Sequence record: OP279344.1
Length of the DNA: 64,000 nucleotides
From: Escherichia phage P1
Reading direction: 5' to 3' (one strand)
The translations under genes and the position numbers were made by a program. Below the pieces are notes generated by a model. It searched no databases. It was not told where the DNA came from and saw only the letters and a list, made by a program, of their open reading frames with translations. Below are positions 902-36,427 of the stretch, piece by piece; the first letter of the stretch is position 1, and every line of letters begins with the position of its first letter.

Positions 902-1513
902 TTAATTTCCTGCTTTCAGTTGCTTAAGACGACGTTTGAGTTCGCCATTCCGTGCCTTTTCGTTATTGAGTCGGCCCGTCTCCTTATCCAGCTTCGCCCG
1001 CAAATCAGTGATCTGCTGTTGATTGAAAGACACCGAATTCTGCGCGGACTTATAAGCGGCAACCACCTGAGCATTCCGCTGTTTTGCTTCTTGCAGGCGC
1101 TGAAAGTTGGATTTAACTGCCGGTTTCTTGTCTACCGGATTGGCAACACGTTTCGCTTTGGCGATCAGTGATTTCTGGAATTTTGCGGAGTTTTTGCGGG
1201 CCGCTTGCCCCATGACGGTACCAAGCGTCTTGATATCCGGCGACTGAGCGTTAGGAATAGCTTTTCCATTCAGCTTCACAGACGATATATCGCCAGTATC
1301 GTTTACCTGTATGGCAAGAATTTGTCCGTCGCTAAGAACCAGCTTTGCGGTTTTAACTTTAACGCCATCTTTCGTTGTTGCGCGGTTGCTGGAGTCAACC
1401 TCAATTACCGTAACACCGGTTTTATTGATCGCCGTGATAAGGGATTTCAGCCCCTTTTCATTAACCTGGTCAAAATCGACCGTTGCATACTTATTTTTCG
1501 TCATCTGACACAT
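902..1513 (-). CDS. Hdf-like protein (paralogue of a DarA fragment), 203 aa
   Basis: ORF track; lysine-rich C-terminus; local similarity to the partial upstream DarA-like ORF. Confidence 0.45.
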   Translation of the reverse strand: MCQMTKNKYATVDFDQVNEKGLKSLITAINKTGVTVIEVDSSNRATTKDGVKVKTAKLVLSDGQILAIQVNDTGDISSVKLNGKAIPNAQSPDIKTLGTVMGQAARKNSAKFQKSLIAKAKRVANPVDKKPAVKSNFQRLQEAKQRNAQVVAAYKSAQNSVSFNQQQITDLRAKLDKETGRLNNEKARNGELKRRLKQLKAGN

Positions 1514-1934
1514 CCTGTGCGAGATTTATTACGTAACTGCTGCGGATTTGCTGAGTAACAGGGAAAATCCGATACAACGGGTTAATGAACGAGTCGCCAT
1601 GCGTAACCATGACGTTGAAATGCCACAGTCGCTCTCCTTTACCCATATATTCAGTGGGTATGTACAACCATTCACTGTTTTCGCCCTGTTCAGCCGACGC
1701 CAGACAACGTTGTTCGCCTTCAATCACTGTCGTCGGCTTCTGAACATCGCGGATCCAATATCTGACCGTTGCGCCGCGCAAAAACGGGAATTTAGACCGG
1801 TACTTGAACGGCACCCGGATGAAACCCGGTTTAATTTCCACATCACCAAGTTCTAAATGCGTGATGTCCTTGCGTTTTAGCAAATAGCGATCGGCTAAGG
1901 CTAACGCAAGAACGCATACACCCCAGCCAATCAT
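1491..1934 (-). CDS. LydB-like lysis-associated protein, 147 aa, N-terminal hydrophobic segment
   Basis: ORF track; start overlaps the holin-like gene stop; positional. Confidence 0.4.
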   Translation of the reverse strand: MIGWGVCVLALALADRYLLKRKDITHLELGDVEIKPGFIRVPFKYRSKFPFLRGATVRYWIRDVQKPTTVIEGEQRCLASAEQGENSEWLYIPTEYMGKGERLWHFNVMVTHGDSFINPLYRIFPVTQQIRSSYVINLAQDVSDDEK

Positions 1935-2260
1935 TTCCCGCCTCCCTTTTTCACCAAACTTGTAAGAACATTCAGAATGCTATCGATATTCACTCGTTTC
2001 ATCCCTGAAATCACCTCATGACCGTTATTGCTGGCTATCGTTACCATTAAGTACGTAATTGATAACTCCCAGCCCTCGTGTTGCCCCAATAGGTACGCCA
2101 CCGCGCCAGCTGTCACTGCAACAAAGATCTCCGTAACCAATCCCAACAAATTGCCAGACTGGCGACCGTCTCGGACATCCATCAGGAACGTGCCTATCCC
2201 ACCAATTACTGAAAGCAGGAGCGCAATAGCAACTGGAGCTAATTCCTGTGTGTCAAGCAC
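1931..2260 (-). CDS. Holin-like membrane protein (LydA-like), 109 aa
   Basis: Hydrophobic helices (VAIALLLSVIGGIGTFL; IFVAVTAGAVAYLL) and a charged C-terminus. Confidence 0.5.
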   Translation of the reverse strand: MLDTQELAPVAIALLLSVIGGIGTFLMDVRDGRQSGNLLGLVTEIFVAVTAGAVAYLLGQHEGWELSITYLMVTIASNNGHEVISGMKRVNIDSILNVLTSLVKKGGGK

Positions 2261-2327
2261 AAGTTCCCTCCTACGTTGTCAGGAGGTAATGGTATGCAAA
2301 GTAACTTCTCAACCGGTCATTTGTTGC

Positions 2328-2609
2328 TTAAGAGGCATTTCTATTGAGGTACGAATCAATAATCCTTTGTAACTTTTCAAGAATGAGCCTGTTATTGATG
2401 CTGCAAATAATAGTCACGCAATTCTGAAGACTTTCATCCATACCCTTATATTCCGCGAAATACATGCCTATAAAGCCTGCAAGTACGGCAGCAATACACT
2501 CGGCCATCAATTGCCTGCATGACGCTTCGTAACGTTTTTCACAAACCCCATTCAGAAACGAATGCACCCCGCCAAGGATGGAGAGGAGCATTATTGTGAA
2601 ATCACACAT
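2328..2609 (-). CDS. Small membrane protein, 93 aa
   Basis: ORF track; hydrophobic segments; AT-rich region upstream of cin. Confidence 0.3.
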   Translation of the reverse strand: MCDFTIMLLSILGGVHSFLNGVCEKRYEASCRQLMAECIAAVLAGFIGMYFAEYKGMDESLQNCVTIICSINNRLILEKLQRIIDSYLNRNAS

Positions 2610-2736: not shown

Positions 2737-3297
2737 ATGCTAATAGGCTATGTACGCGTATCAACAAATGAACAAAACACTGCTTTACAACGAAACGCTC
2801 TTGAAAGCGCAGGATGTGAGCTAATTTTTGAGGACAAGGCGAGCGGCAAAAAGGCTGAGCGCCCTGGGTTAAAAAAGGTACTCCGTATGCTTTCCAGAGG
2901 TGATACCCTGGTCGTATGGAAGTTAGACCGTCTTGGGCGCAGCATGCGTCACTTAGTTGTGCTGGTGGAAGAGCTGCGTGACAGAGGCATTAACTTCCGG
3001 AGTCTCACTGACTCCATCGACACCAGTACACCAATGGGGCGCTTTTTCTTTCACGTAATGGGGGCGCTGGCAGAAATGGAACGTGAGCTTATCGTTGAAC
3101 GTACACGCGCTGGACTTGATGCAGCTCGCGCAGAAGGTCGTATAGGTGGGCGTCGGCCTAAATACCAAGAAGAAACATGGCAGCAAATGCGGCGATTGCT
3201 GGAGAAGGGCATCCCCCGTAAGCAGGTTGCAATCATCTATGATGTGGCTGTTTCCACGCTTTATAAGAAGTTTCCGGCGTCATCATTTCAATCCTAA
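2737..3297 (+). CDS. cin: Cin site-specific DNA invertase (serine recombinase, Hin/Gin/Cin family), 186 aa
   Basis: N-terminal catalytic motif YVRVSTNEQ, resolvase core, C-terminal HTH; abuts the invertible segment. Confidence 0.95.
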   Translation: MLIGYVRVSTNEQNTALQRNALESAGCELIFEDKASGKKAERPGLKKVLRMLSRGDTLVVWKLDRLGRSMRHLVVLVEELRDRGINFRSLTDSIDTSTPMGRFFFHVMGALAEMERELIVERTRAGLDAARAEGRIGGRRPKYQEETWQQMRRLLEKGIPRKQVAIIYDVAVSTLYKKFPASSFQS

Positions 3298-32681: not shown

Positions 32682-33542
32682 TTATTCTGGGAGTTTCAGC
32701 TTTGGATTGCGAGAATGGACGATTACAAAACTTTCCCGGCCTTTCTTCTCAATTGAACAGTCGAGATAGCCGATTGTTTTAAGCTGTTCTATCGCTTTCT
32801 TAATGATACGGTTTTGCTCGCCAACAGCTGACTGCAAAGCCAGGCGCTCACGGATTCGGGCGAAAGATAGCGGCAACGGATTCTGCGGAAGGCTTTCGAT
32901 GAAAGTGTAAATGGCTTGTGCAGCTTCTTTCTTCGGAAGGGCACGCAAGGCGTGGTGTTGCAACAGAACGCGATAATCAAGCTGGAACAGCTCCCACAGC
33001 TTCGAATCAGCCTCCAGCTCTATCAGATCAAGGTCAGCATCAAAACGACCGACCTTTAGCAGACCAGTCTGATAGCCGCCTTTAGCATCTTTTCCGCGCT
33101 TAAAAGCGATACCCTTGTTACGTAAGCGTCCAAGTGATTCATGAATGGTTAAACGCAGTTTCGCATCCAGACGTTTTGAGGGGAAACCACAGGCTTTAGC
33201 GAATTCCTGAAACGATAACTGGATGGTGTTTGAGGACAAGCCGTATTTGCTGAACGCGTAGATGACACCGATCCACGTTTTGAAATCAGTATCCATATCG
33301 AGTCGAGGACCGGTGATTTTAATATCATCGTAACCCTCGGCTTTAGCTATCTCCAGCTGGGAAAACGCTTTGGTGGCATCAATCTCTTTACTTTCTCCTT
33401 TGCTCTTTGATGGCTTCGGAACGAATACCCCCAAGCGCATCAATGCTACAGGCTGGACAGTGTTGTTTGAATTAACTGTTAGTTCTTTTGCCTTACTTTC
33501 AATGTCTGCGTAAAGAATATCGGAGATAAATGATTGATTCAT
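32682..33542 (-). CDS. repA: RepA plasmid replication initiator, 286 aa
   Basis: Flanked by iteron arrays on both sides; size. Confidence 0.9.
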   Translation of the reverse strand: MNQSFISDILYADIESKAKELTVNSNNTVQPVALMRLGVFVPKPSKSKGESKEIDATKAFSQLEIAKAEGYDDIKITGPRLDMDTDFKTWIGVIYAFSKYGLSSNTIQLSFQEFAKACGFPSKRLDAKLRLTIHESLGRLRNKGIAFKRGKDAKGGYQTGLLKVGRFDADLDLIELEADSKLWELFQLDYRVLLQHHALRALPKKEAAQAIYTFIESLPQNPLPLSFARIRERLALQSAVGEQNRIIKKAIEQLKTIGYLDCSIEKKGRESFVIVHSRNPKLKLPE

Positions 33543-33597
33543 ATTACTTTTTCCGAATTGTGTGGATAGTTTTTATAAGTGGTGATAACTACCCAGG

Positions 33598-33825
33598 CTT
33601 TCCCGTCAGCACACATCCTATATCCCGCCAGCACACATTAGCAACCCGTCAGCACACATTTTTATCCCTCCAGCACACATCGTTTTCCCTCCAGCACACA
33701 TCGCGATACACTTCTAAGCCAGACGTGGCGCGGCCTGCAACGATCAGGGATCTATATGGATCTAATTGGGATCTGTATGGACCTAATTATTGGATCTACC
33801 CAGTGGATAATGTGGATAAGTGAAA
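33598..33825. repeat. incC iterons (5 copies) plus oriR elements (five GATC heptamers, tandem DnaA boxes)
   Basis: Five TCCCTCCAGCACACATC-type repeats at 33598-33702; GATC at 33742, 33749, 33759, 33770, 33793; tggataatgtggataag. Confidence 0.8.
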
Positions 33826-33859
33826 AACCGGCCAACATAGCCGGTTGGAAGGAAGGGTA

Positions 33860-34252
33860 TTATTCTACGCTTTCGATAAGAAGACCATGTTCATAGCATT
33901 TAAGCTCATCGCCTTCATACAGGAACTGGTATCCAATACCACCATATTCAGGCACATTAGGGAATAACTCATCACTTACCGAAGAACAAATCACACCAAT
34001 GCAGCGATCAACGCCTTCTCGTTCTTCAGTGCTGAAAAAATCCTCTTCGGTAAGAACATGAGTGCATTGCTCATCAGCATAGGTCGGAAATACATGCTCG
34101 ATGCAATCCGGGTGTTTTAAACCAAGCTGATCGGCAAGCTCGAAAGCATGACGGTATTGTTCAGATCCTGGCTTGCCAACAGTGATTTGCTCAATTTTGT
34201 AGATTGAAGTCGCTTTGTTGATAGTTTGCTTTACTGTTACTTTATCAGACAT
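33860..34252 (-). CDS. Hypothetical protein, 130 aa
   Basis: ORF track. Confidence 0.3.
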   Translation of the reverse strand: MSDKVTVKQTINKATSIYKIEQITVGKPGSEQYRHAFELADQLGLKHPDCIEHVFPTYADEQCTHVLTEEDFFSTEEREGVDRCIGVICSSVSDELFPNVPEYGGIGYQFLYEGDELKCYEHGLLIESVE

Positions 34253-34263
34253 AAAAATCCCTT

Positions 34264-34596
34264 TTAGTTACCACTGATAGCGTGGTTGTAATCATTAACG
34301 TTGCGATTCTTCCTGTTAATCCCCATCAGCATCGTTTCTGTATCAAGGATATAGGCTGGCAGATCATCAAAATATTCACTGCTAAACTCTGGCATCCTGC
34401 ACATAAACGCACTTTTGGGGGCAGGGTGATTAACCTTTGTCGGCGTCGGCGTTAAATTCGCTGATCGACTCCCGGAGCAACCGCTGAGTGTCAACAGGAA
34501 TGCGCTGGCGAACACTACCCGACGCAACCAGTTGTTTCTGAACTTCAGCTTTTCGTTCCATTTGCCTGTCAGCATATTTGGCTTGTTCTGATTCAT
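34264..34596 (-). CDS. Outer-membrane lipoprotein, candidate o-spanin (Rz1-like), overlapped architecture
   Basis: Signal peptide with lipobox LTLSG-C; Pro/Thr-rich mature part; starts inside the upstream gene in another frame. Confidence 0.55.
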   Translation of the reverse strand: MNQNKPNMLTGKWNEKLKFRNNWLRRVVFASAFLLTLSGCSGSRSANLTPTPTKVNHPAPKSAFMCRMPEFSSEYFDDLPAYILDTETMLMGINRKNRNVNDYNHAISGN

Positions 34597-34879
34597 TTTT
34601 CACTTCCTGGCTGTGAAAATGTTGCTCTGCTTTGTTCATCGTCTCAATGGTCTGGTTAAGATCCATTATTGACTTATCACGTTCCTTAACAGCCTGATCA
34701 AGACTGCCAATTTTCTCCATGGCTTGCTTTAGCTGATGACGTTCCCATGCAAACCCAGCACCAACAAGTGCGCAAATCAGAACAAGAACACCAGTAGCAG
34801 CAAGTTTCTCCTTCAAAGACAAAGCTGTTTTTAACGTAGAAAAGAATGACATGTCTTCCTCCTGAAGAAAAATTATCAA
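34430..34879 (-). CDS. Candidate i-spanin (Rz-like): N-terminal transmembrane helix + periplasmic coiled coil
   Basis: Transmembrane segment LAATGVLVLICALVGAGFAW followed by a charged coiled-coil region; 3' end overlaps the lipoprotein gene. Confidence 0.5.
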   Translation of the reverse strand: MIIFLQEEDMSFFSTLKTALSLKEKLAATGVLVLICALVGAGFAWERHQLKQAMEKIGSLDQAVKERDKSIMDLNQTIETMNKAEQHFHSQEVKNESEQAKYADRQMERKAEVQKQLVASGSVRQRIPVDTQRLLRESISEFNADADKG

Positions 34880-34891
34880 TGAAGTCCTTTG

Positions 34892-35680
34892 TTACTGTGC
34901 CGCTTTGTTTAATTCATCAAGAACAGAATCAGGAACCAAAGCGGCAACTGCGCTGGCTGTGCTGGCCTTATTTGCTGATGCTTCCGCAAGCGCGGTACCG
35001 ATAGCATGGTTATAAGCAGTTATGGCTACGTTGGCGCTTTCATTCGCTCGTTCATACTGCTGTTGTAACGCAGTTGTGGGCGCTGTTGTCTGGTTGAAAA
35101 CAACCCCAAACTGTTCAGTTGCTACTTTCAGAGATTCAATTTGCTCTTCTGTTAGTGCTGGTGGGGGAGTGGCAGTGCCGCCGCCTGAACCAGAGCCTGA
35201 CGAGCTTCCTGAGCCAGTGTTAAGGGTCTGGTTAATCTCCCCCATAGCAGCAACTAAACTTGATGTATTAAGCGCGTTTACAGCGTCCTCAAGCGATTTA
35301 GTAATAGTCACATCACCAATGGCAATAGAGATCGGCAGTTCTGAAACTTCTCGCTCATTAGCACGGCAGTAAACATCCCAACCAATATCGAGTTGAAGCA
35401 GCATTGACAGATCTGCATAACCAGCCAACAGGTCCGCGTGCTTAGTTGCCAGTTCGACAATGTTCGTTAAGCCTGTTGTGGTTGTTCTGATCGTTGAAAC
35501 ATAACTGGTAATAGTGTCGGGATAGACAATTGTATCCAAAATTAATCCGATCAATTCTTCTGCAAGCTGTTTTGCCGTGTTAGCACTGTTTCGTGCCGAT
35601 GTTATGGCACCAAGTGTTTTCATCCCACCGGCTGCGGCCAATTTTTTATATGCGGATAACTGGTAGTCTTTTTCCAGCAT
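34892..35680 (-). CDS. Hypothetical protein with Gly/Ser-rich linker, about 262 aa
   Basis: Preferred start ATG 35680 with AGGAG RBS (ORF track extends to 35737). Confidence 0.35.
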   Translation of the reverse strand: MLEKDYQLSAYKKLAAAGGMKTLGAITSARNSANTAKQLAEELIGLILDTIVYPDTITSYVSTIRTTTTGLTNIVELATKHADLLAGYADLSMLLQLDIGWDVYCRANEREVSELPISIAIGDVTITKSLEDAVNALNTSSLVAAMGEINQTLNTGSGSSSGSGSGGGTATPPPALTEEQIESLKVATEQFGVVFNQTTAPTTALQQQYERANESANVAITAYNHAIGTALAEASANKASTASAVAALVPDSVLDELNKAAQ

Positions 35681-35688
35681 GATATCTC

Positions 35689-35973
35689 CTAACTTACCTG
35701 AACTAGGCCGTCTCCGGACGCTACGGTAGATCCGCATGAAACAGGGTCACCAACGCATACGATCCCTTTACCATTGACGGTAAACCATGCCCTGGTTGAT
35801 ATAGCTTGCCCACCGTGCGTACTGTTTCCATCGGTATGCTGTGCATATTGCTTACCATCAACTAACACTTCGACTCCGTTGACTTTAAGTAGTGGTTCAC
35901 TCTCTACAGGAGGCCTGGATGGGAATCCTCCGTGCCCCGAACAAATGCTGTCTTTTGTTGCAATACTTGCCAC
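35689..35973 (-). CDS. PAAR-like small Gly/Cys-rich protein, 94 aa
   Basis: Repeated HGG and VNG-x-GD-x-C-GS spacing resembling PAAR/spike-tip folds. Confidence 0.4.
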   Translation of the reverse strand: MASIATKDSICSGHGGFPSRPPVESEPLLKVNGVEVLVDGKQYAQHTDGNSTHGGQAISTRAWFTVNGKGIVCVGDPVSCGSTVASGDGLVQVS

Positions 35974-36054
35974 GTCGTCACCAATGATTTGCTCTGATTT
36001 TCGTTATTTTAACTTAGGTTATTTGTGGTCTGTATGGCGTTTACTTATTACAAA

Positions 36055-36071
36055 ATTGCTCTAATAAATAT
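36055..36071 (+). promoter_or_regulatory. C1 operator upstream of the uhr-hrdC-dmt operon
   Basis: ATTGCTCTAATAAATAT, 16/17. Confidence 0.6.
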
Positions 36072-36427
36072 TGTTTTTTATATCGTGTTTTCGGTACCAT
36101 TCAGCCATCGCCCTTCAATGGGCATTTGTTTGGAGTCGTCAGATGCAGATGGAGCTAATAAGCCGCAAGGAGTTCGATAGCCGTGTAACCAGCGGTGAAC
36201 TCGACAACTTGCAGGCTATCAAGGTGAAAGAAGGCTTTTGCCTCATTGGGAATCAGAGCGGAACAAATCGCGTTTTTATGCTTCGCCGTACGGATTTGAA
36301 GCCATTTGTCTGGAAGAACGAAATTGGTCCCAGCTCATACGCTCAAACGAGGGGGTGCCACAACTTGGCCTTTTTCTACAAAGACGAGCTTTCTGTGGTT
36401 GATATTCAAGGGTTACAACATGTTTAA
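36071..36427 (+). CDS. Small protein upstream of hrdC; start uncertain
   Basis: ORF track; first in the operon after the operator. Confidence 0.3.

Follow-up and report, generated by a model that had tools for sequence, protein, structure and literature searches.

A predicted overlapped spanin gene pair next to the replicon of a P1-like phage-plasmid, orthologous to ppfA and mlp of phage P1

Introduction

In the stretch of DNA analyzed here (the window, 64 kb in full), two genes that overlap in different reading frames lie beside a plasmid replicon and about 32 kb from the holin genes. The initial annotation had read their products as the inner- and outer-membrane subunits (i-spanin and o-spanin) of a two-component spanin, which raises the questions of whether both frames are real genes, whether the proteins have the features expected of spanin subunits, and whether a position so far from other lysis genes speaks against such a role. 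The comparisons below indicate that the pair very probably represents the two-component spanin of a P1-like phage-plasmid, orthologous to ppfA and mlp of phage P1, for which a spanin assignment is already known.

Results

Locus and gene content

Nucleotide comparison of approximately 2.3 kb around the pair revealed matches to P1-like phages at 94.5–97.8% DNA identity, including 95.5% identity to phage P1 itself (NC_005856, record positions 62889-65190). The gene order repA-oriR-upfA-mlp-ppfA-upfB-upfC-(C1 operator)-uhr-hrdC is common to the window and the P1 record. Because both DNA identity and gene order agree with P1, we assign the window to a P1-type phage-plasmid. The genes and other elements considered at this locus and among the lysis genes are as follows.

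34430..34852, minus strand: ppfA, predicted i-spanin, 140 aa from ATG, type II inner-membrane protein (ORF, P1 orthology, phrog_89)
34264..34596, minus strand: mlp, predicted o-spanin, 110-aa precursor from ATG, 71-aa mature outer-membrane lipoprotein (ORF, P1 orthology, PHROGs, BLASTP, codon phase)
33860..34252, minus strand: upfA, downstream neighbor (ORF and P1 record)
34892..35737, minus strand: upfB, upstream neighbor (ORF and P1 record; baseplate according to PMC12810830)
35689..35973, minus strand: upfC, PAAR-like spike tip, upstream neighbor (ORF and P1 record; baseplate according to PMC12810830)
33826..33846, minus strand: terminator-like hairpin, 9-bp stem followed by a T-run, just 3′ of upfA and before oriR (consensus scan only)
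1491..1934: lydB (position in the window)
1931..2260: lydA (position in the window)
2328..2609: lydC (position in the window)
2307..2289: LPdar-type late promoter (pattern scan)

A repA gene of P1 type was identified as the ORF at 32682..33542, whose product starts MNQSFISDILYADIESK and whose position corresponds to that of P1 repA, so the pair does adjoin the plasmid replicon, as initially described. The pair was also correctly placed far from the holin genes: its distance from lydA/lydB, approximately 32 kb, is the same as in P1. The genes lyz, lydD, and lydE were not found within the 64-kb window; those of P1 are located at 20.0-20.9 kb and would lie upstream of the window start if the two genomes are collinear. 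Placement in a lysis cassette is usual for spanin genes and does not define them, and ppfA/mlp stand outside such a cassette here, as they do in P1. The phage-plasmid of the window would carry the full P1-type lysis tool-kit, scattered as is known for P1.

Start and topology of PpfA

Three features bear on the start and membrane topology of the ppfA product.

34430..34879, minus strand: ORF of 149 aa from TTG (ORF list)
34858..34863, minus strand: ppfA ribosome-binding site AGGAGG, about 5-6 nt before the ATG (sequence; same site for P1 in Kongari 2018 Table S1)
34748..34804, minus strand: single transmembrane helix of PpfA, residues 17-35, LAATGVLVLICALVGAGFA (Kyte-Doolittle maximum 2.35; helical in AlphaFold2)

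The product was originally described as 149 aa long, and an ORF of that length does exist from the TTG at 34879, but translation likely begins at the ATG at 34852, shortening the protein to 140 aa. This ATG, from which the product begins MSFFSTLK, is most likely the start of ppfA because it is preceded by AGGAGG and because the same start is given in the P1 record and in Kongari 2018 Table S1.

Residues 17-35 form the sole strongly hydrophobic segment of PpfA (Kyte-Doolittle 19-residue mean 2.35, with no mean above 1.6 elsewhere), which bears out the single N-terminal transmembrane helix noted at the outset. The 104 residues that follow are 36% charged and contain one Pro and no Cys. In an AlphaFold2 model (mean pLDDT 71, 17 homologues), PpfA is helical from residue 13 to 110 and again from 120 to 137, with a break over 111-119 between the two helices, and a crude heptad count placed hydrophobic residues at 10 of 13 a/d positions over residues 37-80. 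The long helical part of the model agrees with the coiled-coil periplasmic domain that had been proposed, and at this mean pLDDT the model gives moderate support to a periplasmic part that is helical or forms a coiled coil. Two of the features by which Kongari 2018 recognizes i-spanins are therefore present in PpfA, namely a single N-terminal transmembrane domain, here of presumed orientation, and a mostly alpha-helical or coiled-coil periplasmic domain with a break, as judged from the AlphaFold2 model and the heptad count.

Lipoprotein features of Mlp and the gene overlap

The mlp gene begins at nucleotide 257 of ppfA in the +1 frame, resulting in an overlap of 167 nt. An overlapping lipoprotein gene in another frame had been postulated for this position, and it is found as described.

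34603..34608, minus strand: mlp ribosome-binding site AGGAAG, inside ppfA (sequence, alignment, Kongari 2018 Table S1)
34477..34488, minus strand: lipobox L-S-G-C, Mlp residues 37-40 (sequence; conservation; LipoP for P1 in Kongari 2018 Table S1)
34430..34596, minus strand: two-frame region of 167 nt, comprising the last 55 codons of ppfA and the first 55 of mlp (alignment)

Mlp has a basic N-terminal region and a lipobox LTLSG|C, with the Cys at residue 40 and a Ser at the +2 position. Its mature part of 71 aa begins Pro/Thr-rich (TPTPT...HPAP) and contains one further Cys (Cys66). The 110-aa product thus shows all the elements originally listed for it: the LTLSG-C lipobox and the Pro/Thr-rich mature part with Cys. 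Cys40 is predicted to be the site of lipid attachment, and Ser at +2 is predicted to direct sorting to the outer membrane. The signal peptide is unusually long at 39 aa; for P1 Mlp, LipoP likewise gives a cleavage position of 39, with the remark "Too long signal sequence" (Kongari 2018 Table S1, PMC6139136).

The remaining spanin features were found in Mlp or in the pair as a whole. Mlp has the small size, the lipobox, and the lack of Asp at +2 expected of an o-spanin lipoprotein, and the two genes are adjacent in one of the accepted arrangements (embedded, overlapped, or separated), being overlapped. At least one periplasmic Cys in either subunit is also expected; Mlp provides it, and PpfA has none outside the transmembrane helix. 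Such a Cys, which would allow covalent homodimerization, occurs in either subunit of 507 of 528 spanin systems (Kongari 2018).

Orthology to the P1 spanin genes

PpfA and Mlp share 97.1 and 96.4% amino acid identity with P1 PpfA (gp064) and P1 Mlp (gp063), respectively, and both identity and gene order place the pair in the P1 PpfA/Mlp orthologue group. The P1 genes have the same 167-nt overlap in the +1 frame, the same ribosome-binding sites, the same lipobox, and the same neighbors as those in the window; the homologues in P7 are Upf62.7 and Upf62.4. PpfA differs from its P1 counterpart by five substitutions (M45I, S111A, S113N, V120A, and a fifth) and Mlp by four (N7S, V28M, A32V, and H105R), all of which leave the core of the transmembrane helix, the lipobox, and the cysteines untouched.

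In Kongari 2018 (PMC6139136), the Table S1 entry for P1 (NC_005856) carries the code "ovl", assigns the i-spanin to gp064 and the o-spanin to gp063, and files P1 under its own family label. The P1 starts, ribosome-binding sites, and lipobox given there match those in the window, and the table counts a single periplasmic Cys for the o-spanin and none for the i-spanin. Bednarek 2022 describes ppfA and mlp as the P1 spanin genes "in yet another unlinked operon", credits Summer 2007 with identifying the P1 spanin genes, and swaps the o- and i- labels of ppfA and mlp relative to their sequence features. The RefSeq label for mlp is "Rz-like spanin", and several GenBank records use Rz/Rz1 for the pair. 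The spanin assignment of ppfA/mlp is therefore already known for P1, and the pair in the window consists of orthologues of these genes.

A genome-wide CRISPRi screen of P1 (PMC10695390) found ppfA and mlp to be non-essential for plaquing, with efficiencies of 1.3/1.2 and 0.24/0.19. Since spanins are dispensable for lysis in shaken laboratory cultures (Bednarek 2022), this result represents weak counter-evidence to a spanin role. Neither gene is mentioned in the main text of the P1vir RNA-seq paper.

Expression and the tail-tip neighbors

The genes ppfA and mlp are the third and fourth of a same-strand string, upfC-upfB-ppfA-mlp-upfA. According to cryo-EM of P1 (PMC12810830), the spike tip is UpfC, and UpfB forms a "tripod" at the end of the tail; both belong to the baseplate. 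Because the first two genes encode baseplate parts, the string is probably expressed late, and late expression of the whole string is plausible. The transcription unit probably ends at the hairpin at 33826..33846. A crude pattern for Lpa-type late promoters, built on LPlyz and LPdar as the only examples, gave no match at 34880-36140; the pattern recovered LPdar at 2307..2289 and is too crude to prove absence. The only promoters in the P1 record are predicted sigma-70 promoters inside upfB, and in our sigma-70 scan, sites were no more numerous than in shuffled sequence.

More distant P1-like plasmids retain the string, and their downstream region is without the Rep3_N or ParA/ParB-type matches seen in P1-like loci. 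Because the string persists where the downstream genes differ, the closeness of ppfA/mlp to oriR and repA appears to be incidental, as the gene order in these relatives suggests.

These neighbors also bear on a reading in which PpfA and Mlp serve the envelope outside lysis, either in lysogenic conversion or superinfection exclusion from the prophage-plasmid or as accessories to the membrane-piercing tail tip of UpfC and UpfB. The pair shows no linkage to the holin and endolysin genes and adjoins the plasmid replicon, its same-strand neighbors upfC and upfB encode parts of the tail-tip apparatus, the predicted promoters in the P1 record are of sigma-70 type with no late-promoter motif found, and both genes are dispensable for plaquing. 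However, spanins are defined by just this combination of a transmembrane-anchored helical protein and an overlapped outer-membrane lipoprotein, P2 LysB and LysC were found separately as the nearest characterized families of the two proteins, and the P1 virion papers searched name neither PpfA nor Mlp as a virion component in their main text. On balance, we consider a non-lysis role improbable. A second or different envelope function of the pair, such as in entry, in exclusion, or through a regulated, delayed maturation of the lipoprotein, may be envisaged because the genes form a string with tail-tip genes, show no recognizable Lpa promoter, are dispensable for plaquing, and encode a lipoprotein with a long basic signal peptide of 39 residues and a large mature domain of 71 residues; we give this idea little credence.

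A role in lysis timing

An older reading regards such genes as encoding "lysis regulatory proteins", so that the pair would modulate the timing of lysis rather than disrupt the outer membrane. In its favor, the note on mlp in the P1 record reads "possibly involved in regulation of lysis (by homology)", and lysB and lysC carry the comment "nonessential; affects timing of lysis" in the P2 record. However, the delayed lysis of Rz-class mutants is now attributed to a block at outer-membrane disruption, as Berry in 2012 and Rajaure in 2015 are said to have reported, and the reading of LysB/LysC as lysis timing regulators has been superseded. P1 also possesses unusually many holin and antiholin genes (Bednarek 2022), which would fit a timing function, but LysB/LysC are taken as a paradigm spanin system in Kongari 2018. 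A timing role for PpfA/Mlp therefore seems very unlikely to us.

Coding potential of the two frames

An open frame in the overlap is weak evidence for a gene when taken alone, because 73% of synonymous-codon permutations of the window ppfA also left the +1 frame open. We therefore compared the locus with those of P1 itself, Cronobacter phage JK004, Salmonella- and Klebsiella-type P1-like plasmids (PpfA 57-62% identical), and two more distant elements (PpfA ~30%), so that PpfA identity across the five further lineages ranged from 97% (P1) down to ~30%. For the two lineages farthest from the window, just 14 and 0.7% of permutations left the frame open by chance.

The mlp ATG, a GGAGG-type ribosome-binding site, the lipobox, the cysteine of the FMC(R/T)MP motif, and the INRKN.NVN.YN tail are kept in all five further lineages. 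Over the six lineages the lipobox varies only among LTLS[GA]C, LTLN[GA]C, and LSLSSC, the FMC(R/T)MP motif occurs in every Mlp, and the mlp ribosome-binding site of the divergent relatives reads GGAGGTG. Variability follows the codon phase of each gene. In the mlp-only part, 41 of 56 columns at mlp codon position 3 are variable vs. 17 of 55 and 13 of 55 at positions 1 and 2, and in the ppfA-only part, the corresponding counts are 68 of 85 at ppfA position 3 vs. 34 of 86 and 32 of 85. The 167-nt overlap is the most conserved stretch, with 75-78% nucleotide identity to the distant relatives compared with 60-62% (ppfA-only) and 72-73% in the flanks. The codon-phase variability, the extra conservation of the overlap, and the retention in relatives together indicate that both frames are real coding genes under purifying selection.

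That only ppfA is real, with an mlp frame open by chance and a fortuitous lipobox, draws on the 73% figure and on the frequent omission or shortening of mlp by gene callers in related contigs, but it has next to no probability given that about half of mlp lies beyond ppfA with a clear third-position bias there, that its ribosome-binding site, ATG, lipobox, second Cys, and C-terminal motif are kept in six lineages, and that Mlp is significantly similar to P2 LysC. In P1-like contigs, overlapped o-spanin genes are routinely overlooked or shortened by gene callers, which is a known problem, and the significance of the present pair extends little beyond its correct annotation.

Family assignments and remote relatives

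In a PHROG scan, PpfA matched phrog_89 over nearly its full length (E 1.8e-24), a match that may be partly circular if P1 PpfA is a member of that family. Mlp matched phrog_30284 (E 6e-76) and phrog_456 (E 6.4e-5), and all three families are labeled Rz-like spanin. P2 LysB falls in phrog_89 as well (E 5.8e-61), and P2 LysC falls in phrog_456 (E 1.7e-31) with a cross-match to phrog_30284 (E 5.4e-4). Known spanins scanned in the same way showed that lambda Rz/Rz1 and T7 18.5/18.7 belong to other PHROGs.

Pairwise and model-based comparisons point in the same direction to different degrees. BLASTP aligned Mlp with P2 LysC at 37% identity over 68 aa (E 3e-8), with a C-x-M-P motif in common, and detected no pairwise similarity between PpfA and LysB (E 59), for which hhalign with our own shallow alignments gave a probability of 25% over 41 columns. 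The best NCBIfam match of PpfA is TIGR03495 (LysB) at 20.1 bits (E 6.2e-4), which does not reach the cut-off of 92.75 that P2 LysB exceeds with 174.5, and the only NCBIfam match of Mlp is NF038368 (LysC) at 14.3 bits (E 0.033), below the cut-off of 27. By these scores, PpfA and Mlp stand outside the curated LysB/LysC equivalog families. A Pfam scan returned coiled-coil noise below threshold for PpfA and no match for Mlp, and it contained no lambda-Rz-type family at E<=1.

Searches with PpfA and Mlp by tblastn against phages and by protein homologue search recovered P1-like elements only. An exhaustive profile search with the PpfA alignment added three more full-length relatives (P0102, P0107, and P0120); no PpfA relative was found in a classical lysis cassette, the two loci from the profile search that were inspected (L006-L009) being P1-like or too short. 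Other matches of the PpfA profile were rejected as compositional, being fragments or long coiled-coil proteins that matched in many stretches. On the basis of the family and pairwise matches, the pair appears to be a distant relative of the overlapped spanin pair of P2, a link that is clear for Mlp and LysC and tentative for PpfA and LysB.

Discussion

Proposed mode of action

The topology signals, the overlapped genes, their conservation, and the LysB/LysC matches all support the i-spanin/o-spanin overlapped architecture put forward in the initial annotation. The term spanin is a well-founded prediction for ppfA/mlp, from whose sequences we infer the topology, complex formation, membrane fusion, and expression timing. 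The spanin mechanism of lambda Rz/Rz1 serves as the model for the following steps, the details of which are given by analogy.

PpfA would insert into the inner membrane via its N-terminal helix, with the N-terminus inside and the C-terminus outside, and reach into the periplasm as a long helical rod of two helices separated by a short break. After export and attachment of lipid to Cys40, Mlp would be directed to the outer membrane and reside in its inner leaflet, since the +2 residue of Mlp is Ser and not Asp. Through the peptidoglycan mesh, the periplasmic domains of the two proteins may bind each other, and Mlp would probably form a homodimer via its single conserved periplasmic cysteine, in line with the requirement of spanins for one or more intermolecular disulfides. 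After triggering by the holin LydA, removal of the peptidoglycan by the SAR-endolysin Lyz would free the PpfA/Mlp complexes, whose collapse might then fuse the inner and outer membranes and complete lysis.

Comparison with known spanin systems

After the P1 orthologues, the overlapped LysB/LysC pair of P2 is the nearest characterized family for PpfA and for Mlp separately. The two systems are alike in layout, with an i-spanin of ~140 aa and an o-spanin of ~100 aa whose gene overlaps the 3′ end of the first, and Mlp aligns with P2 LysC through the signal peptide, the Pro/Thr stretch, and the C-x-M-P motif. They differ in their cysteines, as P2 LysB has two conserved periplasmic Cys (C120 and C126) and PpfA has none. 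They also differ in genomic setting: P2 lysB/lysC are located in a lysis cassette after the endolysin gene K and lysA, whereas the P1-type pair is unlinked to other lysis genes.

The lambda Rz/Rz1 pair is more remote. Neither PpfA nor Mlp matches its families (phrog_13 and phrog_3198) in the PHROG scan, and Rz/Rz1 directly follow S and R. Lambda Rz1 is wholly embedded in Rz, whereas mlp overlaps just the 3′ end of ppfA, and the entire Rz1 precursor is 60 aa long in contrast to the 110 aa of Mlp, of which the mature part alone comprises 71 aa. Different from these traits, the predicted topology and mechanism of the two systems are the same, and the lambda o-spanin, like Mlp, is encoded in the +1 frame relative to its partner and carries a periplasmic Cys.

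The signal peptide of mlp and its annotation

Mlp, the predicted o-spanin, carries an unusually long signal peptide (residues 1-39, window 34480-34596), in which the N-terminal region comprises 26 residues, seven of them Lys or Arg. Its sequence is variable and its length constant across all lineages compared, and a previous survey remarked on Mlp as having a "Too long signal sequence" (Kongari, 2018, Table S1; PMC6139136). The region coding for this signal peptide lies wholly inside the overlap with ppfA, the gene of the predicted i-spanin, and the long signal peptide may persist because it is encoded entirely there.

Gene callers have overlooked or shortened mlp in the records of P1-like relatives (L002 3260-3592, L003, L004, and L005), while a complete lipoprotein ORF of 109-110 aa was found in each of these four loci. 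The calls include:

Cronobacter phage JK004: 44-aa fragment only (gene_24)
L003: 52 aa
L004 and L005: no call

The sequence of window 34264-34879 places a transmembrane helix in PpfA and a lipobox in Mlp, features that are opposite to the i- and o-spanin labels given to these proteins previously (Bednarek, 2022; PMC9025707). In several GenBank records PpfA still goes under a legacy misnomer, either "endopeptidase Rz" or "outer membrane lytic protein".

Genes flanking the predicted spanin pair

The gene 3' of mlp matches Phage_gp49_66 (PF13876) in some P1-like relatives (L003 3600-3953 and L006 6864-7226); UpfA, encoded at this position in the window, has no Pfam match at E<=1. A database protein annotated as "Gp49 family" (P0079) matches Mlp across 70% of its length, which probably represents a mis-called fusion.

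Two genes precede the pair on the same strand:

Window 34892-35973, minus strand: upfC and upfB, with 49 nt shared between upfC and the beginning of upfB

UpfC is PAAR-like, with a Pfam match narrowly below the cut-off (E 8.5e-6), and UpfB contains a Gly/Ser run, GSGSSSGSGSGGG. Cryo-EM of the P1 baseplate tip has identified UpfC as the spike tip and UpfB as the "tripod" (PMC12810830).

Control sequences and other landmarks

No Lpa-type late promoter was found upstream of ppfA, upfB, or upfC (window 34880-36140, minus strand) using a crude pattern, AAGTNANTT-N4-TANNNT with <=1 mismatch; the identical pattern detected LPdar at 2307..2289. A candidate operator lies in the same region:

Window 36055-36072: ATTGCTCTAATAAATATT, in the upfC/uhr intergenic region, its position matching the P1 C1 operator Odmt (Op68)

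At this position, ATTGCTCTAATAAATATT faces the rightward dmt promoter. A repetitive stretch at window 33530-33823 corresponds to the location of the oriR/incC RepA iterons in the P1 record; translated, it yields a spurious ORF in which "QHT..." units recur. Two further genes were located near the start of the window:

Window 2328-2609: lydC, second holin-like gene, 93 aa
Window 2737-3297: cin invertase

As in P1, lydC and cin adjoin the holin genes lydA and lydB.
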